From: an uncultured Methanoregulaceae archaeon
Lineage (GTDB): Archaea; Halobacteriota; Methanomicrobia; Methanomicrobiales; Methanospirillaceae
Assembly (NCBI GenBank): GCA_963701095.1
Contig: OY969564.1
Coordinates: forward strand, 1,408,001 to 1,472,000
Reading direction: 5' to 3'
Length of the DNA: 64,000 bases
Position 1 is the stretch's first letter. Each line of letters starts with the position of its first letter. Under the pieces are notes generated by a model. The model had not been told where the DNA came from and did no database searches. It saw only the letters and a list, made by a program, of their open reading frames with translations. Below are positions 38,604 through 56,974 of this stretch, one piece after another. A program made the translations under genes and the position numbers.

Positions 38604-38654
38604 TGTTTCAAAATATGTTTCAAATTTTGATGTTCAGCAAAGAACCTATACCTT
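38604..38654 (+). promoter_or_regulatory. Conserved stress-promoter element, copy 1
   Basis: TGTTTCAAAATA TGTTTCAAATTT TGATGTTCAG CAAAGAACC TATACCTT. Confidence 0.75.
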
Positions 38655-38702
38655 TTGTTGTGTAGCCCTTACCTGCGGTACACACCAGCACAAGGTGAAA
38701 TT

Positions 38703-39053
38703 ATGGAGGAAAAAACAGAGAAGCTCCTGAAAAAATTCGAGCAGGAGAACGAAACCTACGTGAGTGCAACAGATAAACTGACGTACTGGATCATTTATGC
38801 GAGGATCCCGAAAGGAATGGAAAAAGGAGTCCATAACCTCCACCGCGGAAAAAAATATGTTTCCGGACCAAATGAGGAGGGAAATGTGCTGATTCTTCCA
38901 GATCCGGATAATTCTGAAAATTATGAGGTGGAATCCTGGGGAGAGATGGGAACGATCGATGATTTTGTCCAAAAAGCACTCCCTCGTATCCTGACGGATA
39001 AAAATGAGGCGGATAGCGGGCTGAACGAACGTTGTGGGGCCAGCTGCGGCTGA
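38703..39053 (+). CDS. Hypothetical protein with C-terminal CxxxC
   Basis: AGGTGA SD; 116 aa ending RCGASCG. Confidence 0.7.
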   Translation: MEEKTEKLLKKFEQENETYVSATDKLTYWIIYARIPKGMEKGVHNLHRGKKYVSGPNEEGNVLILPDPDNSENYEVESWGEMGTIDDFVQKALPRILTDKNEADSGLNERCGASCG

Positions 39054-39081
39054 TCCTTTAAAGAGTCATAGGATGTGAAAA

Positions 39082-39318
39082 ATGAAGACATTACCTCAAT
39101 CACAAAAAATGGTACTTGAGATTCTTGGCACGGGTCGAGCTATGACCCACAAGGAAATTGCAGGAAAAGTGAGTTACTCGCCAAGAACAGTAAGGTATGC
39201 ATTAAAAAAACTCAAAGAAAAGAAACTCCTCATCGAGAAAATGAATCTGCAGGATATGCGCCAGATAATTTACCAGTACCGATTTCAGGAGGCTGCAGCG
39301 GAAAGCTCATCCGGTTAA
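39082..39318 (+). CDS. Small winged-HTH transcription regulator
   Basis: LPQSQKMVLEIL..MTHKEIA..YSPRTVRYALKKLKEKKLL..NLQDMRQIIY. Confidence 0.85.
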   Translation: MKTLPQSQKMVLEILGTGRAMTHKEIAGKVSYSPRTVRYALKKLKEKKLLIEKMNLQDMRQIIYQYRFQEAAAESSSG

Positions 39319-39351
39319 CTATACACCATCTCTGGAAAGACAAAGAGGCTT

Positions 39352-40023
39352 ATGAGCAGGACTACACCATTCAGCGCGGTCAACCTTTATCAGGACGTGG
39401 CGGTGGATGCTGAAACCTGGAACCATTTTCCTGACACGGATGTTGTTGATATAACCGTACAAGCCATTAAAAAACGCGGAATAAAAGTTATTCTGGCAGC
39501 GGATGGTGATGAAGCACTTGCTGTAATCAGGAAACTTATTCCTTCCGGTTCGGAAGTCATGTCAGGGTCCTCGACTACTCTTATTGAGATAGGGTTTGAG
39601 GATTATGTTGCCAGGGGAACCAGCGGCTGGATCCTTTTGCATACCAAAATTAATGCCGAAGATGACCCGGTAAAAAGGGCAGAGATTCGAAGAAAATCGG
39701 TTACGGCTGATTATTTTATCTCATCTGCAAACGCGATTGCCCAGACCGGAGAGATCGTTTCTTGCGACGCCACTGGAAGCCGGGTTGGTGCATGGCCTTA
39801 TGCAGCCGGGCACCTTATCCTTGTCGCCGGAATCAATAAAATCGTGCCCACAGTCGAGGATGCTTTGCAACGCATCAGGACGTACGTTTTTCCGCTTGAA
39901 AATGTCCGGGCAATGAAAGCATATGGCACACAGAGCATGATCGGAAAATGTGTGATTCTTGCAAATGAGAAACAGGAAGGACGTATTACTTTGATCCTTG
40001 TCAGCGAATCTCTTGGATATTAG
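39352..40023 (+). CDS. LUD-domain (lactate-utilisation LutC/YkgG-like) protein
   Basis: GSSTTL.EIG, ADYFISSANAI..GEIV..DATGSRV, GINKIVP. Confidence 0.8.
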   Translation: MSRTTPFSAVNLYQDVAVDAETWNHFPDTDVVDITVQAIKKRGIKVILAADGDEALAVIRKLIPSGSEVMSGSSTTLIEIGFEDYVARGTSGWILLHTKINAEDDPVKRAEIRRKSVTADYFISSANAIAQTGEIVSCDATGSRVGAWPYAAGHLILVAGINKIVPTVEDALQRIRTYVFPLENVRAMKAYGTQSMIGKCVILANEKQEGRITLILVSESLGY

Positions 40024-40059
40024 ATGCTGGATTGCCTCTTTTCCAATGGTTAAAGATAC

Positions 40060-40110
40060 TGTTTCAAAAAGTGTTTCAAAATCTGATACTCAGGAAAGAG
40101 TCTATTATCG
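40060..40110 (+). promoter_or_regulatory. Conserved stress-promoter element, copy 2
   Basis: TGTTTCAAAAAG TGTTTCAAAATC TGATACTCAG GAAAGAGTC TATTATCG. Confidence 0.75.
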
Positions 40111-40275
40111 TTCCTGAGGAAAAGTCAGGCAGACAGAAGAGTTCACGCTACTGCGATAACGATACCGAAGTATCCGTGAGGTCCATTATCCAAAATCCAA
40201 CAACCCCTCCGGAACGCGGAAGATCAAAATTCAGGTACAGTTTGAGTAAGGACAGGATTGGAGAACGATAAAAAA

Positions 40276-41730
40276 ATGCCAGACATCTGTATCGGGTTCG
40301 AAGTGCACCAGCCTTTCAGGCTTAATCGTTATTTTTCCCCGGATCCAAAAAAAAAGGAAAAGGATCTTGATTCACTCTATTTTGATGCCATTAACCGGGA
40401 AGTGCTGGAACGGGTAGCAGAGAAATGCTACGTGCCGGCCACCAACATCATCCTGGAAAAACTTGATGAGGGGTTCCATTGTACGTTCTCTTTTTCCGGG
40501 ACATTTATCGAGCAGCTGGAGAAATGGAGGCCGGATGTCCTTTCCCTTTTTGACCAAGTAGCAAGGCATAAAAATTCCGAACTGCTCGGCCAGACCTATT
40601 ACCATAGTATCGCCGGCTGTTTTGGAGATAAAACGGAATTTATGGAGCAGGCCGGTATGCATACCGAACTTATGTACGACCTGTTCAGGATCCGGCCGAC
40701 TGTATTTGAAAACACTGAATTCACGTTCAACAACCACATCGCATCCTGCGTAAAAAAAATGGGCTATGCCGGAGTGTTTACTGAAGGAGTTAACCGGATT
40801 CTCGATTGGCGTAGCGCACATCATATCTATACCTGTGATGACGTGCCCGTTCTTCTCCGTGATATACAGCTTTCTGATGATATAGCGTTCCGGTTTGGTA
40901 ACCGGGGCTGGGACAAGTTCCCACTAACTGCAGACACATATGCTGACTGGATTCGCGGTGCGAATGGCGACCTCGTAAATGTCTTTATCGATTACGAGAC
41001 CTTCGGGGAGCATTTCTGGAAAGAGACCGGGATCCTTAATTTCCTTTCCTATCTTCCTGAAGAGCTGGAAAAACGGGGAGTCCGGACGATCCTTCCGTCA
41101 GATGCACTTGAGAGTTACATGCCGGTGGGTACTGTCGACGTGAAGGAAACCATTTCGTGGGCAGATATAGAAAAGGACGCGTCCGCATGGATGGGAAATG
41201 AGCGTCAGCACACAGCATACTCGGCGATACAGAAAGCTGCTGCATTTGCCAAGGATAAGGCCATCTGGCGGTACCTCCAGACAAGCGATCATTTCTATTA
41301 CATGGCGTCGAAGTTCGGAACCTGTGGCGAGGTACATAATTATTTCAGTCACCATGAGGCCAGAGACGCGTTCAAGATCTACATGGCAATCCTTGCCGAT
41401 TTTGAAAACAGGAATATCCGTTTTATGAAAAACAAGCGATCTGCAAAGACCCTGCGCACCCTCCCCCCGGAAGAGGCATTTCATTTTACTTCTCCCACGG
41501 GCTACGTCGGATATGCTGCATATAGTCTCGATCAGTTCTGCGACCTTCTCCGGGTAGTTCCGTCGGATTCGATTGCCTATCACCAGGAACGAGGGGATAT
41601 CGCGCAGTGGATAGAACACACACTCAAAGACCAGAAACTTGCAGAAGATATCATCGGCCGCAGGGACAGACAGGACCTGATTACTACCATCAACCAGAGG
41701 AGAGAGGAGTTATGGAGTCGCTTAGCGTAG
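40276..41730 (+). CDS. GH57 alpha-amylase with DUF5752-like C-terminal domain
   Basis: FEVHQP, QTYYHS, ENTE, LSDDIAFRF, DYETFGEH, LQTSDHFYYM. Confidence 0.9.
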   Translation: MPDICIGFEVHQPFRLNRYFSPDPKKKEKDLDSLYFDAINREVLERVAEKCYVPATNIILEKLDEGFHCTFSFSGTFIEQLEKWRPDVLSLFDQVARHKNSELLGQTYYHSIAGCFGDKTEFMEQAGMHTELMYDLFRIRPTVFENTEFTFNNHIASCVKKMGYAGVFTEGVNRILDWRSAHHIYTCDDVPVLLRDIQLSDDIAFRFGNRGWDKFPLTADTYADWIRGANGDLVNVFIDYETFGEHFWKETGILNFLSYLPEELEKRGVRTILPSDALESYMPVGTVDVKETISWADIEKDASAWMGNERQHTAYSAIQKAAAFAKDKAIWRYLQTSDHFYYMASKFGTCGEVHNYFSHHEARDAFKIYMAILADFENRNIRFMKNKRSAKTLRTLPPEEAFHFTSPTGYVGYAAYSLDQFCDLLRVVPSDSIAYHQERGDIAQWIEHTLKDQKLAEDIIGRRDRQDLITTINQRREELWSRLA

Positions 41731-42851
41731 CATTTTTCTGTTGGGAATCTATGTATGCGGAGCGGGTCGGGGGCCTTGCCAATGCCGCTACTAACCTTGC
41801 CGAGACCCTTGCAAAAGACCATGAAGTCCACTTTTTCACCCGTGGGTGGGTGCAGGACCAGGTTATCAATGACGTTTCGTATCACTACTGCCGGCCACAG
41901 GGCAATAATACCGTACAGTACTGCGAAGACATGAGTAATCAGATGGTGGAGCAGTTCTGCCAGGCTGACCAGAAAAAAAGGTTCGATATTCTCCACTTCC
42001 ACGACTGGCACCCGATACAGGCACTGCACAGATTGAAGGATCGGGAAACTATCCTTACATTCCATTCCACGGAATTTGGCAGGAACGGAAACCAATACGG
42101 GGATTGGTGGGAGTACAGGGAGATCTCCGGGAAAGAATGGTACGGGGGTCTGATTGCAAAGAGAGTTACCGCGGTTTCGACTGTCATGAAAAACGAAGTG
42201 ATGAGATTGTATAATATCCCGGATTGGAAATGCGACGTAGTGCCAAATGGTATTGTACCCCGACAGTATCATGCAAATATTGATCCCGGCGAGGTTAAAC
42301 AAAGATACGGGATTCATCCCTATGCTCCCCTGATCCTCTTTATCGGTAGACTCGTGTATCAGAAAGGTCCCGATCTTTTTATCGATGCATTACGGACAGT
42401 ATGCCGAGATCGATGGGATGCGAAAGTAATAGTAGCCGGTGATGGGGGGATGAGACAGTTCCTCCAGGAACGCGCACGGGATCTCCCGGTCAATTTTGTC
42501 GGATATATCCCGGACTCTGAATACATTCGTCTCCTCAACGCGTGCGACCTTGTAGTTATACCCAGCAGAAACGAACCCTTCGGTCTTGTTCTTTTGGAAG
42601 CATGGAGTGCGGAGAAACCCGTTGTTGCCTGTGATGTCGGGGGGCTTTCTGAGAATATAGATGCGTTCGTAAACGGTATCAAGGTGCAAACAGACCCCGG
42701 ATCGCTTGCATGGGGAATTAATACTTTAATTGGTGACCCCACAAATGCAGAGGTACTTGGACGGAGAGGACGAGCAAAAGTGGACCGACAATTCCTATGG
42801 AGCCCGATAGCAAACCGGATGGAAGGTACCTACTCGCAGGTGTGCAGTTAA
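41712..42851 (+). CDS. Glycosyltransferase family 4 (glycogen synthase-like)
   Basis: VGGL, HFHDW, GRLVYQKG, PSRNEPFGLVLLEAW. Confidence 0.88.
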   Translation: MESLSVAFFCWESMYAERVGGLANAATNLAETLAKDHEVHFFTRGWVQDQVINDVSYHYCRPQGNNTVQYCEDMSNQMVEQFCQADQKKRFDILHFHDWHPIQALHRLKDRETILTFHSTEFGRNGNQYGDWWEYREISGKEWYGGLIAKRVTAVSTVMKNEVMRLYNIPDWKCDVVPNGIVPRQYHANIDPGEVKQRYGIHPYAPLILFIGRLVYQKGPDLFIDALRTVCRDRWDAKVIVAGDGGMRQFLQERARDLPVNFVGYIPDSEYIRLLNACDLVVIPSRNEPFGLVLLEAWSAEKPVVACDVGGLSENIDAFVNGIKVQTDPGSLAWGINTLIGDPTNAEVLGRRGRAKVDRQFLWSPIANRMEGTYSQVCS

Positions 42852-42903
42852 TCTACGGCTGTGCGTAATTATGGTCTTGCTGAGTCACAACCAGGAAAAA
42901 AAC

Positions 42904-43347
42904 ATGCCCCTGCCATGGGATTTCCGCAGGGGAATCAGACAGTTATCCGACGATGTCTTATCCTTGGGGATCGATAATTACCTGGTATCTGAACAGTTTG
43001 CAGCGTTTTGCAGGAACCATGGGATCTATGAAATCTGGACCGGGATACGGGGGCTTTCCCGGGATAAACCGGAGTTATACGGCAGGGATGTTCTAGATAA
43101 TGCGTTTTTTTTGCTGTTACAGCACATTTACCGTGCAAGAAATGCTGAATTTTTAGGATTTCTTACTGATCTTCTGGCAGACTATTCCGGGGTCCCTCTA
43201 AATCCCTCATTTTTCCTCGCGATTCAGAATGATTTGATTATTCTTGGATATTCACGGAAAGATGCGGAAACCCACTTTTCATCATGGAGAAAAAGACGAG
43301 GAGATCTGAGGTCAGACACGGTCCAGGATGTTTCCCGGGTTTCTTAA
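42904..43347 (+). CDS. Hypothetical protein
   Basis: 147-aa ORF in operon orientation. Confidence 0.55.
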   Translation: MPLPWDFRRGIRQLSDDVLSLGIDNYLVSEQFAAFCRNHGIYEIWTGIRGLSRDKPELYGRDVLDNAFFLLLQHIYRARNAEFLGFLTDLLADYSGVPLNPSFFLAIQNDLIILGYSRKDAETHFSSWRKRRGDLRSDTVQDVSRVS

Positions 43348-43367
43348 AAAAATCCCTTGTGTACTTA

Positions 43368-43418
43368 CTTTTCAAATTTTGTTTCAAAATCTGGTTTTTA
43401 AGAGAGATCCTTTTATAT
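43368..43418 (+). promoter_or_regulatory. Conserved stress-promoter element, copy 3 (grpE-dnaK-dnaJ)
   Basis: CTTTTCAAATTT TGTTTCAAAATC TGGTTTTTAA GAGAGATCC TTTTATAT. Confidence 0.72.
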
Positions 43419-43720
43419 TTACTATTTAATTCACTCGCGGGTGAGATCAATTCCCATATTTGAAGCTTCAGGAGGAGGATACATCCCAAGAGAAACTATA
43501 GACAAAAACTGGGGTAATTTGTGTAAAGGGAAGGGAAGCGTACAGAAATTCCCTTTCACGGTAATGTCCCCGAGTGGGGTTTCCTGCCCGGGGGACAGAC
43601 TGTAGCCGGTGTAATTCCGAGAACTGCATATATTCCGATTTTGTCCGTCACTACTGGATCCACCCCCGGTTTGACTGAAAAGCCTGTAACTGGAATCTCA
43701 GGGGTAAAAGAGGTAATTTC

Positions 43721-44209
43721 ATGGATGAGATCGGGCAGCTGAAAACGGAACTCGAGGAAAAGACAAAACTATCCGAGGACCGACTGGAACGGTTGAGATA
43801 CCTCCAGGCAGAGTTTGATAATTATCGCAAATGGCAGGAAAAGGAGAAAGCAGCAATCATCGCACTTGCCAACGAGACCCTGATAAAAGATCTCCTCGTT
43901 GTTTTCGATGATCTCGAACGGGCGCTGCCGTCACTTACCCACGAAAAGAACAAAGCAGGCATCGAAATGATCTACAAGAATTTCAACAAAATCCTTTGTG
44001 CCTATGGCTTGCAACCGATACCCTGCCTTGGAAAAAAATTCGATCCGCAGTTCCATGAAGTCCTGTGCACCGAGAAGTGCGGGAAAGAACAGAACACCGT
44101 ACTTGAGGAGCTGGAAAAAGGGTATCAGCTGAAGTCCAAAGTGATCAGGCCATCGAAGGTAAAGATAGCAGAACATGTAATGGAAGAAACGGGTGAAAAC
44201 AATGGCTAA
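43721..44209 (+). CDS. grpE: Nucleotide exchange factor GrpE
   Basis: [36 protein letters not shown]. Confidence 0.95.
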
Positions 44210-46082
44210 GGAAAAAATAATCGGAATCGACCTCGGAACGTCCAACAGCGAAGCGGCAGTAATCATCGGCGGAAAACCCACGATCATCCCGTCTGCAGAA
44301 GGTGCAACCGTAGCCGGAAAGATGTTTCCCTCGTATGTAGCGTTTACCGCAGACGGCCAGCTTCTCGTAGGCGAACCGGCACGGAGGCAGGCCGTGAGCA
44401 ACCCTGAAGGAACAATCTCGGCGGCAAAACGCAAAATTGGTACAAACCATGTGTACAAAATTTACGGGAAAGAGTATACACCCCAGCAGATCTCGGCATT
44501 CATCCTGCAGAAGATAAAAAGAGATGCAGAAGCGTTCCTCGGAGAGAAGGTAACAAAGGCAGTCATTACCGTGCCTGCGTACTTCAACGACAACCAGCGT
44601 ACTGCAACAAAGGACGCCGGCAAGATCGCAGGACTCGACGTTGTCCGGTTAGTCAACGAACCCACGGCAGCGTCGATGGCGTACGGGCTCGACAAAGGCG
44701 GCGAGTACAAGATCCTCGTCTTCGATCTCGGCGGCGGTACCCTTGATGTCACCATCATGGAGTTCGGCGGCGGCACGTTCACGGTCCTTTCAACGTCCGG
44801 GGACACCCAGCTGGGCGGAACCGATATGGACACTGCGATCTACGAATGGATTGCAGCCGAGTTCAAGAAACAGGAAGGCATTGATTTACGCAACGACAAG
44901 ATGGCGATCAACCGGGTAAAAGAAGCCGCCGAGAAAGCAAAAATTGAGCTCTCCACGGTACTGGAAACCGAGATCAACCTGCCGTATGTCTCGGCAACCC
45001 AGGCAGGTCCCAAACACCTGTCAATGAAACTGTCGAGGGCAAAACTCGAACAGCTCGTCGAACCGATCATCCAGCGGTGTTCCAAACCGTTCGACCAGGC
45101 ATTAAAAGACGCGAAACTCTCCAAAGACGATATCCAGAAAGTGATCCTCGTCGGCGGACCGACCCGGATGCCGATCGTCCAGAAATTTATTGAAAACCAC
45201 GTGGGCGACAAGATGGTCCGGGGGATCGACCCGATGGAATGTGTAGCCATGGGTGCAGCAATCCAGGGCGGTATCCTCGGCGGCGAGATCACGGATATGG
45301 TGCTCCTTGACGTTACGCCGCTTACGTTAGGCCTCGAAACACTCGGGGGTGTCAGGACCGCCCTGATCGACCGGAACACCACGATCCCGACCAAGAAAAG
45401 CCAGATATTCTCAACCGCTGCAGATATGCAACCGTCGGTGACGATCCATGTGCTCCAGGGAGAACGGGCGATGGCTGCCGATAACGTCAGCCTCGGCCAG
45501 TTCAATCTCGTCGGTATCCCGCCGGCGCCGCGGGGAATCCCCCAGATCGAGGTTACCTTCGATATCGATGCATCCGGTATCATCAACGTTTCGGCAAAAG
45601 ACCTGGGCACCGGAAAAGAGCAGAAGATGACTATCACAGCGTCGTCAAAACTCTCGGATGCTGACGTGAAAAAGATGGTATCCGATGCCAAGGAATTCGA
45701 GGAGCAGGACAAGACACGAAAAGAGGAGATCGAGTCGCGCAATATCGCCGATTCTCTTGTCTACACCGCAGAGAAAACAAAAACCGACCTTGCCGACAAA
45801 CTGGACGCAGCCATGGTTGACCGGCTGAATGCGGCGATCACCAGTGTCAAGGCCGCACTCGACGGGAAAGATGTTACGACGATCCGGTCAGAGACGGAAA
45901 AACTCCAGAAAGTCCTGGGAGAAGCCGGGACTGCCGCATACCAGCATGTAAGCCAGCAGGCACAGCAACAGGCAGGAGGATCCCAGGAAGCACCTCCGGG
46001 TGCAGGATCGGCCGGCACTGCCACCGGTCCCAACGGTGAGAACGTGGTCGACGCTGATTTCAAAGTCAAGGATGACAATTAA
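44202..46082 (+). CDS. dnaK: Chaperone DnaK (Hsp70)
   Basis: [44 protein letters not shown]. Confidence 0.98.
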
Positions 46083-46096
46083 TACAAATTTTTCAC

Positions 46097-47170
46097 ATGA
46101 ACATGGCGAAACCGGATTATTATGAGGTACTTGGCGTAAAACGGGATGCTACAGCGGACGATCTCAAGAAAGCGTTCCGGCACCTTGCACGGAAATACCA
46201 TCCTGACCTCAACAAAGGCAGTAAGGACGCAGAAGAAAAGTTCAAGGAAATCAATGAAGCGTACCAGGTCCTCGGAGACCCCCAGAAAAAAAACCAGTAC
46301 GACCAGGTAGGCCATGTGGATTTCAAACCCGGGGATGCGGCCGGTTACCAACCTCCCAGTTATGACGACCTGTTCCGGGACTTCGGGCTTGGCGATATAT
46401 TCGATGCGTACTCGATGGGGTCCCGGGGATCCAGAAGGCGGGCCGGCGCGGATCTCCGGTATGATCTTGATATTTCCCTTACCGATGCATTCTACGGGTC
46501 CAAAAATACGGTTGCCGTCCCGCACCAGTCAGAATGCGGCACCTGTCACGGGACCGGCGCACAGCCGGGGTATCTCAAACAATGCCCGACCTGTCACGGA
46601 ACGGGCGAGATCAGGACGCCCCAGAAAATCCGTAACCGCCAGGTAATAAGTCTCTCGACCTGCCCGGAATGCGGGGGGAGTGGCAGGATTATCGAACAAC
46701 CCTGCCAGACCTGTCACGGCACCGGCGTCCTGCAGAAAACCCGGAAGATTGAGGTTACGATCCCCCGCGGTGTTGAAGACGGACAGCTCCTCAGAATTGC
46801 GGGCGAAGGTGAACCCGGGGAAAACCAGGGGCCGCCGGGTGACCTCTACGCGGTCGTTCACGTGAAAAATGATGCGGTATTCGAACGACAGGGCGCGGAT
46901 CTCCGCACAACCGCGGTTGTCGGGTTACCGGTCGCACTCCTGGGAGGAGAGATCAACGTGCCTACCATAACCGGAAGTGCCCTCCTGAAAATCCCCCGGG
47001 GGACACAAAGCAATACCCTGTTCCGGCTCCGCCTGCTGGGTATGCCGCTCCGCAATTCCGACAACCGGGGCGATCTCCTGGTAAAGGTCATAGTCCAGAT
47101 TCCTACAAACCTCACAAAAAAACAGGAGGATCTGATGAGAGAGGCGTTCGCGGGTGGGTCGGCCATATAA
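46097..47170 (+). CDS. dnaJ: Chaperone DnaJ
   Basis: J domain with HPD; four CxxCxGxG repeats. Confidence 0.96.
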
Positions 47171-47251
47171 ATGGAGCCATGGATGCCACGTGAAGCACAG
47201 TTGCCACCGGGTTATCCGGATGGGCATGAAATCAACGATAAAGGAGGAAAA

Positions 47252-47757: not shown

Positions 47758-47801
47758 TATCACTAAGTTACCCTTCTTTTTTTGGATTAACCGGGCCTTC
47801 T

Positions 47802-47852
47802 TCTTACAATAAATGTTTCAAAAATTGAGTTCTCCAATTAATTTGATAAAAT
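47802..47852 (+). promoter_or_regulatory. Partial stress-promoter element, copy 4 (hsp20)
   Basis: TCTTACAATAAA TGTTTCAAAAAT TGAGTTCTCC AATTAATTT GATAAAAT; one good box, upstream flank resembles copy 1. Confidence 0.55.
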
Positions 47853-47959
47853 ATCACAAAATAATATCCCACGCGGTGAAGAGCTGAGTCTCCCGGTAAC
47901 TTGTCAGGAAGACCTTGGTCCTTTACCGTTGAACTCTCGTAAAAGCGGGGGTGAACACA

Positions 47960-48439
47960 GTGGTCCGATGGTATTACCGATCAGTATTTGATGAGATTGA
48001 AGACATGCGGAAGTACATGGAGTCTTTATCTCGGCAGCTGCACGAGACCAACCCGATGGCATTGTTACCTGCAACCGGGGAGGCGAGAACAAAAATGCTT
48101 CCTGAACAGCCTACTGACTTGCTTGTCGATGTGACTGAGAAAGATGACGAGGTCATTGTGACCGCAGATATGATTCCCGGTGTGGCGAAAAAGGATATTT
48201 CGCTTAATCTTATCACACCCCACTCTCTTAAGATTTCCTGTGAACGCAAGGAGGAAAAGAAGGAGGAGAGGGAAGGGTACTATCTGCGAGAACGCAGTTT
48301 TGGATCGATGACGAGGATAGTTCCCCTCCCAAAACCGGTGACAGAAAATACGGCTTCTGCAACGTTCAAGAATGGCGTTTTGGAGGTACATCTCAAGAAA
48401 GTCGAAAAAGATTCCGGGGGGAAAATTTCCATTGAATAG
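47960..48439 (+). CDS. Hsp20/alpha-crystallin small heat-shock protein
   Basis: VDVTE..ADMIPGV.K.DI, ERSFG...R...LP, ATFKNGVLEV; GTG 47960 follows a GGGGTGA SD. Confidence 0.93.
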   Translation: MVRWYYRSVFDEIEDMRKYMESLSRQLHETNPMALLPATGEARTKMLPEQPTDLLVDVTEKDDEVIVTADMIPGVAKKDISLNLITPHSLKISCERKEEKKEEREGYYLRERSFGSMTRIVPLPKPVTENTASATFKNGVLEVHLKKVEKDSGGKISIE

Positions 48440-48458
48440 ACAAGAGGAGGGAGAGATA

Positions 48459-48770
48459 ATGGACAAATTCGATGAAGCGATGAAATCATTCGCAGGGATG
48501 TCACCTGTTCAGATGACTGAGGCTATGGGAAAATTTAAAAAAATGTGTACCTGCCCCTCATGCCCGACATACACGCTATGCGCAAAAAATGCACAGGAAC
48601 TTCTTTTCTGTGCGATAGGTAGGAGTTTTGTCTGTATTTCCCAGGAAAAGAACTGTATCTGCCCAACCTGCCCGATAACAGACCAGATTGGGCTCAAAAA
48701 CCGGTTCTATTGTACGAAGGGGTCCGAGATGACACAACGTTATGCAGGAGGCCTCTTTGGAAAAAAGTGA
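48459..48770 (+). CDS. DUF2769-like Cys-rich protein
   Basis: CTCPSCPTY..C..LFC..G.S..CI..CICPTCP..YC..G. Confidence 0.75.
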   Translation: MDKFDEAMKSFAGMSPVQMTEAMGKFKKMCTCPSCPTYTLCAKNAQELLFCAIGRSFVCISQEKNCICPTCPITDQIGLKNRFYCTKGSEMTQRYAGGLFGKK

Positions 48771-48858
48771 GTTATAATAAAGCCACGAAATGTAATTATT
48801 TGCTCAGGAAAAATAGTATTTTTTTTAATCGAATTCTTAACAAATATATACAGGATAT

Positions 48859-49944
48859 CTAGGTTTTCATTGATGGGTAATCTGTGTACCCCTTTTCTTC
48901 CCCGGTATAATACGTTGCGAGATCTTCTTTGTTTAGTGGTGCATTTTTCCTGAATCTCTCAGGGAGATCCGGGTTGGCGAGGAAAAGGACACCGAACGCA
49001 ATCAGGTCTGCTAAACCACTCTCTATTGCTTCGTTAGCGATCTGGGCATCGTATCCGCCGTTTAAAATAAGGGTTCCTTCGAATTTTTTTCGGATGAGCG
49101 GTGCCATCTGCATCTCCGGGGATATTACTCCAAGTCTTCCACCTATCGGTTCCACGAGATGGATATAGCCAATTCTCATCCTTCCCAGTTCCTGTGCAAG
49201 ATAAGCAAATGTCTCCCGGGGGTTCGAATCAGACATGGCATGATTTGAAAAATGAGGCGAGATCCGGTAACCAACTTTTTTCGGGCCCCAAACCCGGGCT
49301 ACTTCTTCTGCAACAGCAAGAGGAAAACGTGCGCGGTTTTTTACGGGTCCACCATATTTGTCAGTCCTTTGATTCGAACCATCTCTTATGAATTGATCAA
49401 GCAGGTAACCATTTGCACCGTGTATTTCAACACCATCAAAACCGGCGTCCTTTGCATTTTTCGCGCCATTACGGAACTGCCGCACAATCGTTAGAATTTC
49501 TTTTTGTTCAAGCGCCCGGGGAACCGGTATTTTTTTCTTTCCGGACGGAGTGTGAATCTCCTCATTAACCGGAATGGCTGAAGGTGCTACCGGAAGCTCT
49601 CCCCCCAGATAATCAGGATGAGACATACGCCCTACATGCCAGAGCTGGAGAAAGATCTTCCCCCCTGTGCGATGAACGGCATGTGTTACATTTTTCCAAC
49701 CTGAAACCTGTTCTTTTGAATAAATGCCGGGGGTCCGGTAAAAACCTACGCCCTGCGGACTTACCTGCGAACCTTCTGATATAATAAGGCCTGCAGAGGA
49801 TCTTTGTTCATAATACCTGGCTGCCAAAGGGCCAGGCACACTGTTTTCACCCGCACGACACCGGGTCATGGGTGCCATGACCATCCGGTTCGAGAACGTG
49901 AGATCATCCAACTTATAGGGTGACAGAAGGCTCTCTGGTTCCAT
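48859..49944 (-). CDS. Old yellow enzyme / NemA-like alkene reductase
   Basis: MAPMTR, QLWHVGR, EIHGANGYLLDQF, ANPDLP.R, GYTDYP. Confidence 0.93.
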   Translation of the reverse strand: MEPESLLSPYKLDDLTFSNRMVMAPMTRCRAGENSVPGPLAARYYEQRSSAGLIISEGSQVSPQGVGFYRTPGIYSKEQVSGWKNVTHAVHRTGGKIFLQLWHVGRMSHPDYLGGELPVAPSAIPVNEEIHTPSGKKKIPVPRALEQKEILTIVRQFRNGAKNAKDAGFDGVEIHGANGYLLDQFIRDGSNQRTDKYGGPVKNRARFPLAVAEEVARVWGPKKVGYRISPHFSNHAMSDSNPRETFAYLAQELGRMRIGYIHLVEPIGGRLGVISPEMQMAPLIRKKFEGTLILNGGYDAQIANEAIESGLADLIAFGVLFLANPDLPERFRKNAPLNKEDLATYYTGEEKGYTDYPSMKT

Positions 49945-49963
49945 TCAATACCACCAATTTCCG

Positions 49964-50849
49964 TTAATAGCCCCCGTAAGATACTATGGATTGAGTTGGG
50001 ACAGGAGTTATTGGTGTAGGAGTCGGGGAAGGAACTGTCGGAACCGTGCCAGTGATATTTGCCACGTACCAGAGATTGTTGAACCCTTCACCATTTGTAT
50101 CGCCGGGTTTTACATCGTTAGAGTAGTAATACAACGGTCTCCCCATGAAGGTGGTCTGTTTTGTTCCGTCTGTTCTTGTAATAGTACCTGAAATCAGCCG
50201 GATTAAGAGCCGAGGGAGCGCTGATTACGCCAGGATCGAATGGAGGCCATTTATCCGTGCATGCCCCTGTACAGGAGCTTGCGCCCGGGGTATCTTTTGC
50301 AAAATAATACAAGGTATTACCCATCTTGTCAACGAGGAAAAATCCAAGCGAGCTGCGCTCTGCTATCATCACAGTTTCATCCGGTTTGACAACAAACCAG
50401 TTGTGGGTCACGTTCTCACCGTAGACATCCCCGGGGTTACTATCGGCCTGGAAATAATAAAGCGGCCAACCCCGGTAGGTTGTCTGTTTCGTACCGTCAG
50501 TACGAACGAATGACGAAAAGTCAGATGCCACAAGCGGAGGGGAAACTGCGATTGTGTCAGTTGAAAAGACCGGCCAGATAGCGGCACACGAACCACTGCA
50601 CACACTTGTGCCGCTTGAAGGTATATCAAGGGCGAAATAATACAAGGATTTTCCCTGTGAATCTACAAGGATATTTCCGAGCGAAGTCGAAGCAACTTTG
50701 ATCGTATCAGAAGACATTGTTGCCATTGCTGTTGTCTGCTGTGCCGTCGGCTGTACTGCCGTAGGGGAGATCTGGTTTTGAGTACACCCAGAAACAAGGA
50801 GTGCTAATACCAATACCACAAGGACTGTAATCCCAAACCATTTTTTCAT
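49964..50849 (-). CDS. COG4315-type lipoprotein with repeated GxPLYY units; 1-nt insertion at ~50187
   Basis: VSGC lipobox; two C..C...WP..R.DG.KQ.T..G.PLYY..D..PGD..G units. Confidence 0.8.
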
Positions 50850-50979
50850 ACAACCACACCACTGCAGTGGCTTTCTTCATTCAAACATCAGATAATTGTT
50901 CTGGCAATTTCCAAATTATAGAACACTATTTGAGAGACATATGGATTGCCGGTCACTCCGATCTCTTCCCGGGGCAGAT

Positions 50980-52371
50980 TTAACAACCGTGACAATTACC
51001 TCTGAGTTCCCGGAGACCACGGGCACATACAGCGATCGCCTCTGTTGCAGTAGGGAAAATATGCGGAGTTACTGAAAGATCATCAGCTGTCAGGTACCTT
51101 ATCACAGCAATAACGCCTTCCTGGATCATCTCCGTGGCCAGAGGAGCGCAGATATGAACCCCCAGGATTCGCCCGTTTGCCTGGTCAGCGACCATCTTTA
51201 CCATGCCTCGCGTATCTCCATCAATGGAAAATTTCGCCATGGATTCTGTCCTGATACTGTATGATACCGGGTGCAGACCGGCTTTACGAGCTTTTTCCTC
51301 GGTCATTCCCACACTCGCAACCTGCGGCGTAGTAAAGATCCCGTGGGGGAGAAGTGCGCTGTTATAGGATCGTTTCAGTTCCCGCAAAGCATTTGTTGCA
51401 GCGATCTCGCCACCGTACTTTGCTGCGGTTTCAAGCATTGGTTCGCCGGTCACGTCTCCCGCTGCCCAGATATGCGGAGCTGATGTTTTCAGGGTCGTAT
51501 CAACAATAATGGCCCCGTCTTTTCTCGTTTCTATCCCCGCAGCAGCAAGGTTAAGTTGGCCGGTATTCGGCAAACGGCCGGTTGCCATGAGAAGACGATC
51601 GGACAGAATAGTCTTCTTTTCATTCCCGATATTGACATGGACAGCGACAGATTCTCCCAAACGTTCAACGCTTTTGATTTCTACACCAGTAAAAATAGTA
51701 ATTCCCTCTTGGATGAGATATCCGGTCATCAAATCGGAAATTTCCGGATCTTCCTCAGGAATAATCCGGGAGCTTCTCTGAAGGAGGGTAACCCGGGTTC
51801 CCAGATGGGCGAACATCTGGGCGAATTCAAGACCAAGTGCCCTTCCCCCAATGATAGTAAGCGAGGAAGGTATTTGTTCCAATCTTGTGGCATCCAGACT
51901 TGTCATGAACCGAACTGATCCGATACCTTCAATGGCAGGTATTGCCGGAGAAGAGCCGGTTGCAATAACAAATCTTTTCGCGGTGACTTTTTTGTCACCA
52001 ACCTGCAGAAGGTTTGGAGAAAGAAACTTTGCTTCGCCTTCAATAAGCTCCACGCCAAGGCGGGTGAAAAGATTATCATGCTTTTTTTTCTTCAGGCTTT
52101 CCTGAAGCGAATTTTTCTCAATAAGTGCCTGATTAAGATCAAACCTGATTTCTGCCTGGACGCCGGGGTGACCATGTCCCGGGTAGAATTTGTAACTGGA
52201 AAGAGACAGGAGAAATTTGCTGGGGATACAGCCGGTATTGACACAGGTTCCCCATAGCGTGCCACGTTCTATAATAGCGACGCGAGACGCACCGAGATGT
52301 ACCGCTGTTGTAGCCGCTGCTACACCGGCAGCACCGGTTCCGATAATTACCACATCATACTCAGCGGCCAT
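50980..52371 (-). CDS. Mercuric reductase-like flavin disulfide reductase
   Basis: GTCVNTGCIPSK, IATGS, WAAGDV, FTTPQVASVG, HIFPT; C-terminal CHGC. Confidence 0.8.
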   Translation of the reverse strand: MAAEYDVVIIGTGAAGVAAATTAVHLGASRVAIIERGTLWGTCVNTGCIPSKFLLSLSSYKFYPGHGHPGVQAEIRFDLNQALIEKNSLQESLKKKKHDNLFTRLGVELIEGEAKFLSPNLLQVGDKKVTAKRFVIATGSSPAIPAIEGIGSVRFMTSLDATRLEQIPSSLTIIGGRALGLEFAQMFAHLGTRVTLLQRSSRIIPEEDPEISDLMTGYLIQEGITIFTGVEIKSVERLGESVAVHVNIGNEKKTILSDRLLMATGRLPNTGQLNLAAAGIETRKDGAIIVDTTLKTSAPHIWAAGDVTGEPMLETAAKYGGEIAATNALRELKRSYNSALLPHGIFTTPQVASVGMTEEKARKAGLHPVSYSIRTESMAKFSIDGDTRGMVKMVADQANGRILGVHICAPLATEMIQEGVIAVIRYLTADDLSVTPHIFPTATEAIAVCARGLRELRGNCHGC

Positions 52372-52494
52372 ATATAAGCCCCTCTCTTTTTAGATGGGAT
52401 TCCAGCGTTGATACCGGTGCGGAACGCTATCTAAAAAATTTTTTTCTTTTCATTATCCAGACATATCGCAAATGGGCATGTTTCACGGAGGTTT

Positions 52495-53119
52495 TTATTT
52501 CTTCAATTTGTCAAATCGTTTGCCGATTTCATCCCAGTTTGCAATATTCCAGAATGCGTCAATAAATTTCGCCCGGTCATTTTTGTAATCAAGATAATAC
52601 GCATGCTCCCACACATCGAGGACCATCAGGATGTCAAAACCGGGAAAAACATTTACATTATGTTTTTCGATTTGCATAATAAGCGGTCTTCCGGTTTTTC
52701 TGCAAATCGTCAGTGCAGCCCATCCCGAACCCTCAACACTGGAAGCAGCCGTGGTAAATTCCTTTTTGAAGCGGTCAAATTTTCCAAATTCAGCATTAAT
52801 CGCATCTGCCAAATCCCCCTTAGGAGCACCGCCGCCTCCTTTTCCTGCGGGAGCGAGATTCTCCCAGAAAAGGTTGTGGAGTTTGAACCCGCCGATATGG
52901 AACGACAGACTCTTTGAGGGTTGCCTTAACGTCAAAATCACTATTCTCTTTCCGCGTTTTGTCGAACTTCTCGTAGATAGCATTTGCACCGTTGACATAC
53001 GCCTGGTGATGTTTCTGGTGGTGCAAGGTTAGTTGTTCTTCAGAAATGTAGGGTTTCAAAGCTGCATAAGCGTAGGGAAGCTTAGGCAATGCATAGAATT
53101 TTGCTGATTCCGGTTCCAT
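52495..53119 (-). CDS. sod: Fe/Mn superoxide dismutase; 1-nt insertion at ~52909
   Basis: [11 protein letters not shown] in one frame; [18 protein letters not shown] in the other. Confidence 0.93.
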
Positions 53120-53189
53120 TTTCTTAACCTCTCGCATAAAAGGACCAATCGAAAGAAAAGTCCTGTCTAAGTTCGGTGTTTACCATGAA

Positions 53190-53240
53190 ATTTTAAAGGG
53201 ATTTCCCTCAGAAACAGTTTTTGAAACATAAACTGAAATG
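53190..53240 (-). promoter_or_regulatory. Conserved stress-promoter element, copy 5 (sod)
   Basis: Minus strand: CATTTCAGTTTA TGTTTCAAAAAC TGTTTCTGAG GGAAATCCC TTTAAAAT. Confidence 0.72.
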
Positions 53241-53294
53241 ACTGCCCGACAGGAAAACAGGTGGTAGAAGAGAGTATGTGATTTTATAAGATCA

Positions 53295-54071
53295 TCACTT
53301 CAGGAGCTGATCCATTTTCTTCTTGTCAAACCCGAAAATAAAAGTCTCCCCTACCTGGACTACTGGTGATCCGATATGACCGGTTTTTTCGATTACGAGG
53401 TTTCTTGCTGCTTCATCCTCAGCCAGATTAATCTCATCGAATTTCACTTTCTTTGAGGTAAGGTACTCTTTGACCGCACGACACCCGGTACACCCCGGTG
53501 TTGAGTAGACCCGCACAACATCAGACGCAGCCCACGTTTTCTTAATAAAATTATCACGACCTGAAAGGACTTTATACTCCTTATACCGGCCTGGATTTTT
53601 CCTGTCATAATCCTGGTGATATTCTTCTGCCGGGAAAAAATTTGTGTAAGGCCGGATTTCTGTTGTGATAGGTTTTGTAAATTTTCCTGAATTTTCAATT
53701 TTCTTTTTTGACGCTTCTGCAAGATTCTTTTGTTCCTCGTCGCGATAGAATATGACCGTTCTGTACTGTGATCCTTTATCTGCGAACTGCCCTATAGGAT
53801 CGGTCGGGTCTATCTGTTTCCAGAAAATGTCAAGCAAGGCATCATAAGAAATCTTTTCCTCGTTGTACGTCACCTGGACAGCTTCGAAATGACCTGTTGT
53901 ACCCGTAGAAACTTCCTCGTACGTGGGATTTTCTTTTTTCCCGCCAGCATAACCGGAGACAACACTGATCACACCTTCAGCATTCCGGAACGGTGGCTGC
54001 ATGCACCAGAAGCAACCTCCGGCAAACGTCGCAGTTTTTCTCTTTTCTCCTGTTTCCAGTTTTTCATCCAT
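53295..54071 (-). CDS. msrA: Peptide methionine sulfoxide reductase A fused to a glutaredoxin-like domain
   Basis: AGGCFWC, GH.EAVQ, AEEYHQDY; C-terminal VYSTPGCTGC..KEYL..SPVV..GFD. Confidence 0.92.
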   Translation of the reverse strand: MDEKLETGEKRKTATFAGGCFWCMQPPFRNAEGVISVVSGYAGGKKENPTYEEVSTGTTGHFEAVQVTYNEEKISYDALLDIFWKQIDPTDPIGQFADKGSQYRTVIFYRDEEQKNLAEASKKKIENSGKFTKPITTEIRPYTNFFPAEEYHQDYDRKNPGRYKEYKVLSGRDNFIKKTWAASDVVRVYSTPGCTGCRAVKEYLTSKKVKFDEINLAEDEAARNLVIEKTGHIGSPVVQVGETFIFGFDKKKMDQLLK

Positions 54072-54100
54072 AGGACCATCTCTTTAGTTACAATGTTCAA

Positions 54101-55201
54101 TCATCCAAAAGTAAACGTGTACGCCCGAAGACCCGGCTCAGGGACATCCAACTCCAGAGTGTGCGTACCATAATCACTACCCTGAACAAGCGAATACAAT
54201 TGGTCGGCTTGGACGGTCACGACACTATTTCTGACATCAGCACCAGCGTTATCCGTTATCGGTTTTCCATCCACCATTACATGCACATCCGTCGCATCGT
54301 CAGCACTGGCAACGAGATAGACGTTTTTTGCATTATATTGGTACACAATACTCGCATTTCCGGTATTTTCGGCATACTGGTCAGCAAAATTCCAGGTCCC
54401 TGACAGGTACAATTCGTCAGGCTGAATCTCGGCTGGCAATACGAGAGTCTGGAGCCCGGATACGGAAGGCTTTCCATTTGCCAGGTACTGGTTCCGTGCA
54501 GAACCGAAGTAAGTTTCAGGGCTCCCGATACCTGAATAATTTATTGTCACTGCATTTCCCGGGACTCCATTAGTATTCGGTATGCTGATATTGAGACCCA
54601 GCGCTTCTGATCGTTCTACTAAAAGCTTCTGTATCTCTTGCTCAGTTTCATTGTAATCGCCTTCTCCGATATGGTGATACTCGATAAATCCGTCGATATC
54701 GATAAGATAGTCCTCAGGCCAGTACTGGTTCCCGTAGGAGTCCCAGCTAGCGTAGTTGTTATCCAGGACAACAGGGTACTGGATACCGAATTTCTGAACT
54801 GCCGTTCTGACATTGTTGATATCATGCTCAAACTGGAATTCCGGCGTATGGACTCCGATGATTTCAAGACCATCATTATGATATTTCTGGTACCAGAGAT
54901 TCAGGTACGGGATAGTGCGTTCACAATTGATGCAGCTATATGTCCAGAAATCAACAAGGATGACCTCTTTACCTATCAGGCTCCCGATAGTAATGTTATC
55001 AACGTTGATAAAACCCGAAGGCTCAGCGATCTCTTTTGCATAGGGGTAAATCTTTGCCTTTTCTGCGTTGATAGCTGTCCTGTTCCCCGGTGTTACTGCA
55101 GTACCAGCGTACGTCCGGTTTGGGCTCAAAGAAGACAGGGCCACAATTGCCAATGCAATAAGGATTATAGCTCCAATGAGTGCGAGTGTATTTTTTTCCA
55201 T
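54101..55201 (-). CDS. Membrane-anchored thioredoxin-like protein (DipZ C-terminal type)
   Basis: N-terminal TM, DFWTYSCINC, GVHTPEF.FE, SPETYFG, AYTFTFG. Confidence 0.88.
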   Translation of the reverse strand: MEKNTLALIGAIILIALAIVALSSLSPNRTYAGTAVTPGNRTAINAEKAKIYPYAKEIAEPSGFINVDNITIGSLIGKEVILVDFWTYSCINCERTIPYLNLWYQKYHNDGLEIIGVHTPEFQFEHDINNVRTAVQKFGIQYPVVLDNNYASWDSYGNQYWPEDYLIDIDGFIEYHHIGEGDYNETEQEIQKLLVERSEALGLNISIPNTNGVPGNAVTINYSGIGSPETYFGSARNQYLANGKPSVSGLQTLVLPAEIQPDELYLSGTWNFADQYAENTGNASIVYQYNAKNVYLVASADDATDVHVMVDGKPITDNAGADVRNSVVTVQADQLYSLVQGSDYGTHTLELDVPEPGLRAYTFTFG

Positions 55202-55204
55202 ATC

Positions 55205-55924
55205 TTATCCGCTCCCGAGAAGATACCCGTTGAGCTCCGGCAGGTTCGCGATGATGGAGAGTGTCTGCGTGAAAATCAAAATACCAATGATGATGAGGAG
55301 AATTCCAAAGACAATATTGACGTAATGGAGCACTCCCGAGTATTTTTTGATCCAGCCAACAGCCTGCGAGGCAAACAGGCCGGTGATAATGAATGGCACA
55401 CCAAGACCCGCAGAGTATGCAAGAAGGAGCGTGAATGCAAGTGACGGTTGATTTGCAGCAAGACCAAGAATCGCCCCCAGTGCCGCCCCCACGCAGGGCG
55501 TCCAACCGGCGGCAAATGCAACCCCGAAAATAAACGATGTAAGATATTTCGATTTTATCCCGGTTACACTGAACTTATGTTCCTGTTCCAGCCAGCTTAT
55601 CCGGATAAGGCCTATGAGGTAAAGGCCAAAAAAGATAATAATCAAGCCTCCGGCCCTTGACAACCAGAGCTGCGCGCCATTCGAAACCGACATAAGAACG
55701 GTATTCAGGAGCACCCCAAGCAGGGAGAACACCAGCGAAAAGCCGGCAACAAAAAGGATACTTGCAAGGACTATATCCCAACGTTTTCCGGATCCTTCTT
55801 TGGCAGAAGTGCCTGCAAGATAGATCAAAAATCCGGGAACGAGAGGGAGAACACAGGGGGCAAGAAAAGAAACAATACCTGCTCCAAATGCAACAATATA
55901 TGATACTTCAACCACGAGCACCAC
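55205..55924 (-). CDS. ccdA: CcdA/DsbD-beta transmembrane electron transporter
   Basis: SFLAPCVLPLVP and GWTPCVG; about six TM segments. Confidence 0.9.
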   Translation of the reverse strand: MVLVVEVSYIVAFGAGIVSFLAPCVLPLVPGFLIYLAGTSAKEGSGKRWDIVLASILFVAGFSLVFSLLGVLLNTVLMSVSNGAQLWLSRAGGLIIIFFGLYLIGLIRISWLEQEHKFSVTGIKSKYLTSFIFGVAFAAGWTPCVGAALGAILGLAANQPSLAFTLLLAYSAGLGVPFIITGLFASQAVGWIKKYSGVLHYVNIVFGILLIIIGILIFTQTLSIIANLPELNGYLLGSG

Positions 55925-56027
55925 CCAACGTTAACAGAGAGTTCTCCTCAAGTGCGGTTCATAGCGGATTTCCACGGATTCCTCTCAATGATGCATGTGA
56001 TTCCCAAGGTGTGTAGAAATAAGGCGA

Positions 56028-56183
56028 TTAGGTCGACCTATTCGGGGACATCACCCACGAACAATCTGCTTCATCCCCGGAAGACCTGCCATTCCGGATC
56101 TCTCCGGCAATAACTTCAAGGAGCATCGCAACATCATCGTTACGATCTTCATTTTTAATCGTGATTTTTATTTCCTGGGTCAT
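56028..56183 (-). CDS. Small hypothetical protein (51 aa)
   Basis: AGGAGG SD-like sequence upstream of ATG 56183. Confidence 0.45.
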   Translation of the reverse strand: MTQEIKITIKNEDRNDDVAMLLEVIAGEIRNGRSSGDEADCSWVMSPNRST

Positions 56184-56208
56184 GTTTGTTAACACATCCC
56201 TCCTGACG

Positions 56209-56796
56209 TTATAATTCTGCCATGCTCCCGGCTTCCGGCTCAGCGTCTGCAAAGAGATTATCGGGACTGCAGTTGTTCACCAGGTTCCGTATATTTATCC
56301 AGATAATTGGTTTCCCGGATGCAATGCCCGATCCGGCCTTCTGTATGACCCCGTGTATTGGTGCCGTATTTCCCCCTGATCGTGCAGTATCCGACTTATA
56401 CCGTGAACATTTAACCGTAATTATCGACGAAATTCCGTTTACCAGTATCCCCAGGTTCGAATCTCCCACTTTTTCATCAAGCATCAGGATACCCGTATAC
56501 TTCTCATCGATGTCAAACCCCCACTGCAATCTGAGACACCGGTTCAGATTAACCACGATTACGTTTCTCCGGTTTCTCCGGATAATCCCCTTGACTATGG
56601 AAGGTTTCGTGTTGTCCTGGTGTCTCAGGTATGCCTCCCTGACAACATCCCTTGTTTCCGTAAGATCTACAGCAAAATGTTTTCCTTGAATAACAAAAAC
56701 GAGCAGCTGCAAGGTTTTTTCTGACGATTCATTAACACCATCAAAGGGAAAAACTCCAAGATGTGCAGATTTTTTTTCACAGGTAACAAGGTCCAT
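56209..56796 (-). CDS. Divergent CheW-like protein
   Basis: QLLVF...FAVDL...RDV..P.IVKGII..R..VIVVNL..LGILV..I..IIWINI. Confidence 0.65.
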   Translation of the reverse strand: MDLVTCEKKSAHLGVFPFDGVNESSEKTLQLLVFVIQGKHFAVDLTETRDVVREAYLRHQDNTKPSIVKGIIRRNRRNVIVVNLNRCLRLQWGFDIDEKYTGILMLDEKVGDSNLGILVNGISSIITVKCSRYKSDTARSGGNTAPIHGVIQKAGSGIASGKPIIWINIRNLVNNCSPDNLFADAEPEAGSMAEL

Positions 56797-56923
56797 ACGT
56801 TTACTCCTCGGATATCAGTTACGGTGCCACAAAATCTTCCCTTTGACGTAAGGAGCCCGGGGGATTCTTTCCATGGCAGGATTCGTCTCTTCACCAGTCG
56901 AGATGGAGATATTTCAAAAGGGA

Positions 56924-56974
56924 TTTTTAAAGACCCTTTCCTGAAAATCAGAATTTGAAACACATTTTGAAACG
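56924..56974 (-). promoter_or_regulatory. Conserved stress-promoter element, copy 6 (cheW-like..ccdA..msrA run)
   Basis: Minus strand: CGTTTCAAAATG TGTTTCAAATTC TGATTTTCAG GAAAGGGTC TTTAAAAA. Confidence 0.75.

Follow-up and report, generated by a model that had tools for sequence, protein, structure and literature searches.

What turns on the chaperone, oxidative-defense and glycogen genes that lie close together in a methanogen genome, and could a single factor control them all? We asked this of a 64,000-nucleotide (nt) stretch of contig OY969564.1 (positions 1,408,001 to 1,472,000) from an uncultured Methanoregulaceae archaeon, here called the window. The original prediction described a tandem direct repeat joined to a TATA-like box that recurs ahead of these genes, and proposed that one factor, bound just upstream of the TFB recognition element (BRE) and TATA box, couples heat-shock, oxidative-stress and glycogen genes. 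This proposal fits all of the tests made here, activation, co-induction and stress as the signal being the parts that we infer. We consider it probable that the element defines a two-component regulon, in which a kinase-phosphorylated regulator encoded in the window would bind the element and activate a general-stress program.

The repeated element is real and well bounded. The five tandem sites, here called class I, were reproduced in letters, coordinates and strand: 38604..38652 (+), with three 12-bp blocks, a purine tract and a TATA-like box at 38647; 40060..40108 (+); 43368..43416 (+); 53192..53240 (-), ahead of the superoxide dismutase gene sod; and 56926..56974 (-), the top-scoring site of the genome. 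The same is true of the partial copy at 47802, and the first 34 kb of the window lack a tandem copy, as originally stated. The inventory proved too short, as the element also occurs at 13 sites outside the window and as a sixth, reversed copy at 38112..38157 (+). In the genome containing the window (G000; 2.63 Mb in a single contig, 86% complete by markers), an iterated 52-column matrix found 18 sites whose leave-one-out scores start at 24.9 bits, compared to 17.3 bits for the next best match and top scores of 12.8-15.3 bits in three locally shuffled genomes. Open reading frames (ORFs) of at least 150 amino acids (aa) cover 78% of the genome, yet all 18 sites lie outside them. A foreign matrix, built from 66 sites of other genomes only, gave at least 28 bits to 11 of the genome's own sites, including all five in the window. 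Five of the 18 (345351, 373491, 453297, 456224 and 773139) scored below 20 bits or were lost with the foreign matrix, and these depend on self-training. The degenerate copy ahead of hsp20 (47802..47850, +) scored 12.1 bits with the own matrix and 16.9 bits with the foreign one, unlike the hsp20 genes of relatives, which have strong sites in front.

The spacing of the element is fixed. In a gap-free alignment of 71 class I sites, the blocks begin 43, 31 and 19 nt ahead of the first T of the TATA-like box, and 12 is the sole period with positive column similarity. The invariant columns of this alignment are 6-7, 13-14, 18-19 and 25-26. Upstream of the box lie a conserved purine tract and a C; 18 nt past its first T is a peak of A, at the place expected for DNA melting in archaeal promoters. 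When the general promoter of the window genome was sought de novo, the search did not converge on TATA. The original prediction set this direct repeat apart from the inverted-repeat operators of Phr, HSR1 and MsvR. The direct repeat was borne out; the contrast was overstated, as the best-conserved positions are arranged as a dyad too. The best-scoring dyads are centered on columns 16 and 25, and the invariant TG and CA steps mirror each other around the middle block. A second class of site, class II, emerged from a de novo motif search of 35 regions between the regulator and the Hsp20-like gene that follows it. The 35 class II sites also align without gaps, with blocks that begin 41, 29 and 17 nt before the TATA box, and they read as class I in reverse complement, with a best column similarity of 0.76; class I thus carries the reversed word relative to class II with an offset of 2 nt. 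The window copy at 38112 is the best match in its own genome (29.0 bits) to a class II matrix trained without it, and its second and third words lie 29 and 17 nt before the TATA T at 38153. Transcription is predicted to begin about 29 nt past the TATA-like boxes, near 38182, 38676, 40132, 43440 and 47874 (+) and near 53168 and 56902 (-). One contig in the metatranscriptome of a relative starts at 38689, 13 nt beyond the predicted start, with a depth of 90 versus 3-4 upstream, and this contig end is a weak hint of a transcription start.

The gene directly ahead of the class II site encodes our candidate for the binding protein. This response regulator (36742..38102, +) consists of a receiver (REC) domain, an inactive KaiC/MEDS-like domain and a PadR-type winged helix. 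Its presumed partner is a soluble sensor histidine kinase (34311..36737, +) with GAF, PAS-repeat, HisKA_2 and HATPase domains by Pfam, in which all hydrophobic 19-mers are at or below 1.54; the kinase gene lies ahead of the regulator in related loci too. When aligned with 11 intact relatives of 445-452 aa, the REC domain keeps D8, D9, D53, T81 and K103, that is, the acidic pair, phospho-Asp, Thr/Ser and Lys of two-component receivers, and the histidine kinase is directly upstream. In NCBIfam, the REC domain matches the PhyR model best, though far under the cut-off. The regulator frame is split in the window, probably by an assembly error of one base. Any one-base gain in 37083-37286 restores a single 453-aa frame, and short-read contigs X1 and X3, which come from one study, possibly that behind the window, each have one additional base across the split and are otherwise the same. 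Short-read contigs are also off by single bases at 43599 and 50187; the assembly therefore carries indel errors.

The domain assignments come from profiles and predicted structures. With a PadR (PF03551) cut-off of 27 bits, family protein P0001 scored 28.5 bits, the second paralog of the genome 38 and the window piece 24.5-27, and the predicted PadR domain superposes on 1xma with Z 11.9 and a root-mean-square deviation of 2.5 over 95 residues. The middle domain has a RecA/KaiC fold in the model (predicted local distance difference test, pLDDT, 86), with Z scores of 14.4 to FlaH and 13.0 to KaiC; an initial model was weak in this domain (pLDDT 63), and its fold search gave REC domains alone. 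MEDS (PF14417) was over the cut-off in two of 16 family proteins scanned (P0153 and P0175), without a match in P0001. The genome also encodes a second intact copy of the regulator (C1:446897-448252) and a REC-less paralog, and its only two Pfam-level PadR genes both belong to this family. Named close relatives of the protein are from Methanoregula or Methanoregulaceae, and the family member in cultured Methanoregula boonei 6A8 is ABS56046.1. The recognition helix is near-constant among motif-positive copies and different in distant paralogs and those linked to gas-vesicle (gvp) genes. In addition, proteins P0124-P0273 represent a broad family of MEDS-PadR one-component proteins of about 300 aa, one of which is labeled Thermoplasmata; a paper by Makarova et al. 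on KaiC as a hub reportedly may list fusions of MEDS with winged helix-turn-helix (wHTH) domains.

Two binders had been suggested for the element, the product of 36742-38102 and that of 39082-39318, and only the former tracks the motif across the genomes searched. We ran a profile of the regulator's output region on 251 genomes of the order and motif models on 150 of these, a set that took in families f1 and f2 in full, every genome with a regulator, and a sample drawn from the others; a loose pattern over the 251 genomes had been noisy, with many lone chance matches, and was replaced by the profile models. Class I matches were found in 31 of the 150 genomes, all within the 34 that encode the regulator at E<=1e-120. 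Either class was present in 36 of 37 genomes with a regulator at E<=1e-94 compared to one of the 113 others, and the contrast is repeated within genera g1, g2, g4, g6, g12, g14, g15 and g27. Seven genomes with REC-less distant homologs (E 1e-37 to 1e-69) gave no motif-model match. In a blind test, loci of another family (L172-L176) were taken for the regulator gene alone, and a same-strand variant of the class I site turned up about 0.5-1.6 kb downstream. For one target family, the site was present at all four regulator-positive loci and at neither of two regulator-less loci. In three of these four, the nearest close copy of the regulator gene is 0.17-1.3 Mb away, a distance that favors a factor acting in trans. 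Similarly, sod has a site at nine of 19 loci in regulator-positive genomes versus none of 11 in others, and none of 16 upstream regions of housekeeping-type grpE genes has one.

The alternative binders did not follow the motif. The 78-aa wHTH protein encoded at 39082-39318 is present in 230 of the 251 genomes, including all eight regulator-less genomes of the host's genus, and was not found in five of six motif-positive g15 genomes (65-91% complete). Its family has no specific Pfam or NCBIfam name, and the island copies are extra paralogs. A protein like the C-terminal winged helix of D5 primase (atlas score 0.93) is patchy and itself a target, and was not found in at least eight motif-positive genomes of the host's genus or in nine of nine f2 genomes searched. 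Four copies of 117-150 aa are encoded in the window genome (C1 2499360-2500367, 773222-773656 and 456484-456747), each behind a site; perhaps they are a second-tier regulator or a chromatin protein.

The element is restricted in its taxonomic range. A GTDB-wide exact scan that used only the repeat part, leaving the BRE/TATA part unseen, returned at least 121 stretches, and among the matches listed 49 were labeled Methanoregula, Methanoregulaceae or Methanomicrobiales. Also among the matches listed, the unseen BRE/TATA part scored more than 3 bits at 44 of 48 unique Methanomicrobiales-labeled sites compared to one of 54 sites with other labels, and the genome with that one site encodes the regulator. 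This split by label indicates a promoter part specific to the lineage, with the bacterial matches due to chance. Among the taxa reached, the element is confined to Methanomicrobiales, chiefly Methanoregulaceae. A contig labeled Nitrospirota (L044:3999) has a site near-identical to one in Methanoregulaceae (L146) with the same small target gene behind it, which could reflect mis-binning or transfer.

All of the downstream units originally named were recovered behind the window sites. On the forward strand these are a conserved hypothetical gene, the 78-aa winged helix gene and a LUD-domain gene (38655..40023); genes for a GH57 protein, a GT4 glycosyltransferase and a conserved hypothetical protein (40258..43347); an accessory grpE-dnaK-dnaJ operon (43721..47170), the housekeeping grpE lying elsewhere without a site; and hsp20 with a DUF2769 gene (47951..48770), assigned by Pfam. 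On the reverse strand are an Fe/Mn superoxide dismutase gene (52495..53137), split by a probable assembly indel according to Pfam, a frame test and short-read contigs, and, again by Pfam, a unit of cheW-like, small ORF, ccdA, dipZ-like thioredoxin and msrA-glutaredoxin genes (53295..56796), in relatives of which a site is found close ahead of ccdA. The class II site precedes an Hsp20-like small protein (38184..38546, +; NCBIfam Hsp20, E 2e-7, under cut-off), which is the regulator's most constant neighbor. Beyond the window, targets in this genome include three HEAT-repeat genes, a GT4 gene with a glycogen debranching enzyme, phosphoenolpyruvate (PEP) synthase with a LigD primase-polymerase, a desulfoferrodoxin-domain protein, an ABC export unit and four copies of a small unknown protein; weaker sites have ATP-cone and PEBP genes downstream. 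In relatives this set is reshuffled, with genes named by inspection as encapsulin-like, ferredoxin-like and isochorismatase-like among the additions. Chaperones, defense against reactive oxygen species, glycogen and LigD are also the output of bacterial general-stress regulons (sigma-B, sigma-S and PhyR-EcfG), and the targets found here resemble a general-stress set. The archaeal system shares this output mix and a soluble kinase of the HisKA_2/HWE type with the bacterial ones; it differs in lacking a sigma factor and in having a DNA-binding regulator at TBP/TFB promoters.

In the mechanism that we favor, the cytoplasmic PAS/GAF kinase encoded at 34311 would phosphorylate the REC domain of the neighboring regulator encoded at 36742. 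Its PadR-type winged helices would then occupy three subsites spaced 12 bp apart and abutting the BRE, and the bound regulator would help to recruit TFB or TBP to otherwise weak promoters, as GvpE, the activator of gas-vesicle promoters, does in haloarchaea. The operator would function in either orientation, with the class I and class II distances given above. The predicted output is a general-stress or hardening program of accessory chaperones, superoxide dismutase, Msr and thiol repair, and glycogen turnover, which would also include PEP synthase with the LigD polymerase, HEAT proteins and secondary small regulators. We propose activation because of the position of the operator and the precedents of GvpE, TFB-RF1, EarA and Ptr2, as far as the available portions of those papers describe them (PMC4390858, PMC5937170, PMC5512572).

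Several findings weigh against this reading. The co-occurrence is partly circular, since many positive genomes supplied training sites, and related genomes are not independent. The regulator and most targets lie on one island. All nine sod sites are linked to the island, and 10 of the 19 sod loci in regulator-positive genomes lack a site. A second accessory grpE-dnaK copy (G000:C1 896870-898901), whose grpE is 94% identical to that of the window, also lacks one. Genome G241, which is 96% complete, has a real-looking orphan class II site (C55:13404-13448, L345) and no regulator was found in it, and G202 has a gvp-type paralog without a motif-model match. Finally, tRNA promoters matched the BRE/TATA part only weakly (p 0.009; two of 48 above 5 bits).

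One alternative keeps the same regulator and activation and changes the cue. The regulon could respond to growth phase or to energy or substrate limitation, as a dormancy-type response, with the kinase module swapped freely between lineages. The constant core of the island is the kinase, the response regulator, the Hsp20-like gene and the site, and across related loci the kinases range from about 300 to more than 1300 aa (some cut by locus ends) with diverse sensors, among CheB/CheR-like or KaiC/KaiB-like neighbors (by inspection). Glycogen, PEP synthase, LigD and gas-vesicle outputs would suit stationary phase, when GvpE is active according to the part of PMC9501494 available. In contrast, the chaperone and superoxide dismutase targets, together with Msr, DipZ/CcdA and the protein with a desulfoferrodoxin domain, speak for damage to proteins and by oxidation, and we regard a growth-phase cue as rather unlikely, though credible. 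The two readings overlap, as they do in bacterial general-stress regulons. A run of KaiC-like, KaiB-like, kinase and regulator genes occurs at L189:3825-10493 with an RsbR-like gene nearby (by inspection), suggesting a KaiC-linked input to the regulator family.

Alternatively, the regulator may merely share the island with its true binder, which would be another island product or a universal factor. The physical linkage of the regulator, the Hsp20-like gene and most sites is what such hitch-hiking would produce, and the orphan G241 site would fit it. Yet both the 78-aa wHTH protein and the D5-primase-tail-like protein fail co-occurrence, sites in family f2 are accompanied by just the kinase, the regulator and usually the Hsp20-like gene, and the element also accompanies the regulator paralogs in gvp operons. 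We consider hitch-hiking improbable. That the regulator instead acts as a repressor released by phosphorylation seems to us more improbable still. Bacterial PadR proteins are mostly repressors, and the third block touches the BRE and could obstruct TFB. However, the operator lies entirely upstream of the BRE at a rigid distance in 71 plus 35 gap-free sites, which is the position of archaeal activators in the accessible text of PMC5937170 and PMC5512572, and GvpE, with the same layout, activates (PMC2241852, in part). The gap-free alignment through TATA and the A/T tracts could also mean that the repeat extends the core promoter for use by an alternative basal factor, or that it bends the DNA and has no dedicated regulator. 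Such a reading is barely tenable given the single TFB gene found in the window genome, a 12-bp period out of helical phase, the occurrence of the element in both orientations and its absence from regulator-less close kin.

The known system closest to the one proposed here is that of GvpE in Halobacterium salinarum and Haloferax mediterranei. The GvpE element is a pair of 8-nt words separated by 4 nt and adjoining the BRE with rigid spacing, as described in the available part of PMC2241852. This upstream activating sequence (UAS) is a known archaeal activator element that shares the BRE-abutting 12-bp layout of the present operator. The class II words are of the same type and have the same 29- and 17-nt distances to TATA, where the p-vac TATA is deduced from a 20-nt leader. 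The PadR-type winged helix has the same short wing, and the KaiC-fold partner domain, fused in our regulator, is the separate GvpD in haloarchaea, an ATPase that triggers the breakdown of GvpE. The differences are a fused REC and MEDS-like domain with a cognate kinase, three blocks instead of two, a reversed class that is spaced differently, a target set of about 20 dispersed stress promoters where GvpE has two gvp promoters, and a window regulator encoded outside gvp genes. GvpE is a PadR protein by Pfam, aligns to the regulator family with an hhalign probability of 97.9, and nests within that family on a long branch in a quick tree of 95 columns (Shimodaira-Hasegawa-like approximate likelihood ratio support 84-86). 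Other comparisons were less favorable: Methanoregula regulators scored 10-15 bits on the GvpE profile compared to as much as 19-21 for bacterial PadRs, only more distant family members attained 49 bits, and on the regulator-family profile the best generic PadRs reached 49-55 bits, similar to GvpE. A tblastn search of plasmids with the output region did not find GvpE, and the middle domain had no sequence match to three GvpD proteins. The relation of the winged helix to GvpE is clear at the family level, our claim stopping short of orthology for the Methanoregula protein; the regulator likely works as the same type of activator.

GvpD and GvpE have been called specific to haloarchaea, and methanogen gvp clusters are said to lack both in the available part of PMC9501494, a 2022 review. 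Distant regulator paralogs nevertheless precede a CDC48-like gene, gvpA and gvpN in methanogen gvp operons (L181, L182, L188, L241 and L242). A class II matrix trained without gvp loci placed the gvpA promoter first in all five methanogen gas-vesicle loci that hold a paralog. It also ranked the haloarchaeal UAS 1st, 4th and 6th of 16,000-20,000 positions, ranks owed to the operator rather than to BRE/TATA, compared to 250th at a halophile locus without gvpE. In absolute terms these UAS score low (-18 to -2 bits), and a high rank comes easily to AT-rich stretches when the surrounding DNA is GC-rich. In the gas-vesicle operons of L181, L182, L188, L241, L242 and L247, the upstream genes are a conserved 220-aa unknown gene, often a kinase, the regulator paralog and a CDC48-like ATPase. 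The class II element at those gvpA promoters recurs further downstream in L181, L188 and L241. Taken together, these observations suggest a broader picture that we hold tentatively, at slightly less than even chances. In Methanoregulaceae and their kin, one phosphorylated activator of the PadR type, reading a reversible operator with a 12-bp period, may control a general-stress regulon without any sigma factor; the same family may drive methanogen gas-vesicle operons, with GvpD and GvpE a split, sensor-less offshoot of a KaiC-fold/winged-helix module. If so, GvpE-type activation is not specific to halophiles, and GvpE is a winged-helix rather than a basic leucine zipper protein.

Response regulators with a helix-turn-helix (HTH) are rare in archaea, with 20 of 697 in Methanomicrobia (PMC5847659 Table 1, seen in part). 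The described examples FilR1, LtrR and Bat also pair REC with an HTH output and a kinase but have the architectures wHTH-DUF1724-REC, HTH-REC and REC-PAS-GAF-Bat-HTH, and the word "PadR" does not occur in the searched text and four supplement files of that paper. The regulator is also not MetOD5, for which the available text gives ABS56126 as its example, not ABS56046.1. EarA, which binds four 6-bp sites, TFB-RF1 and Ptr2 are likewise activators directly upstream of BRE/TATA; the accessible descriptions set them apart by one or few operons and by the lack of a described receiver domain or kinase (PMC5512572, PMC5937170). Our search of the open literature, with most subscription journals outside its coverage, found the element, the regulon and the architecture nowhere described. 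The activator type is already known from GvpE, and the regulon is new. The route from kinase signals to the TBP/TFB machinery is an open question in archaea, and this system is a candidate for a rare testable case of a sensor kinase over a gene set; its parts are a kinase, a regulator and about 20 target promoters whose high-information operator occurs in either orientation. It could provide a handle on how soil and wetland methanogens turn on protection against oxygen and damage. It would also recast GvpE as a PadR-type protein with relatives in methanogens and give a predicted regulator to those methanogen gas-vesicle operons from which gvpDE are said to be missing, and the element could become an inducible archaeal promoter part.

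Smaller features of the genome were also noted. Like sod, genes for an ADP-dependent kinase (window 30242-31470), a secreted-repeat protein (50118-50849) and an arsenate-reductase-like protein (57562-57858) are split or shortened. By inspection, the second accessory grpE-dnaK copy lies near a transposase-like fragment. At G000:C1 466560-466590 and 2607595-2607625, a single operator scores as either class, depending on the strand that is read (class I on one, class II on its complement); at the first of these the flanking genes (ATP-cone-like and DUF1059) are divergent, an arrangement reminiscent of overlapping GvpE elements.

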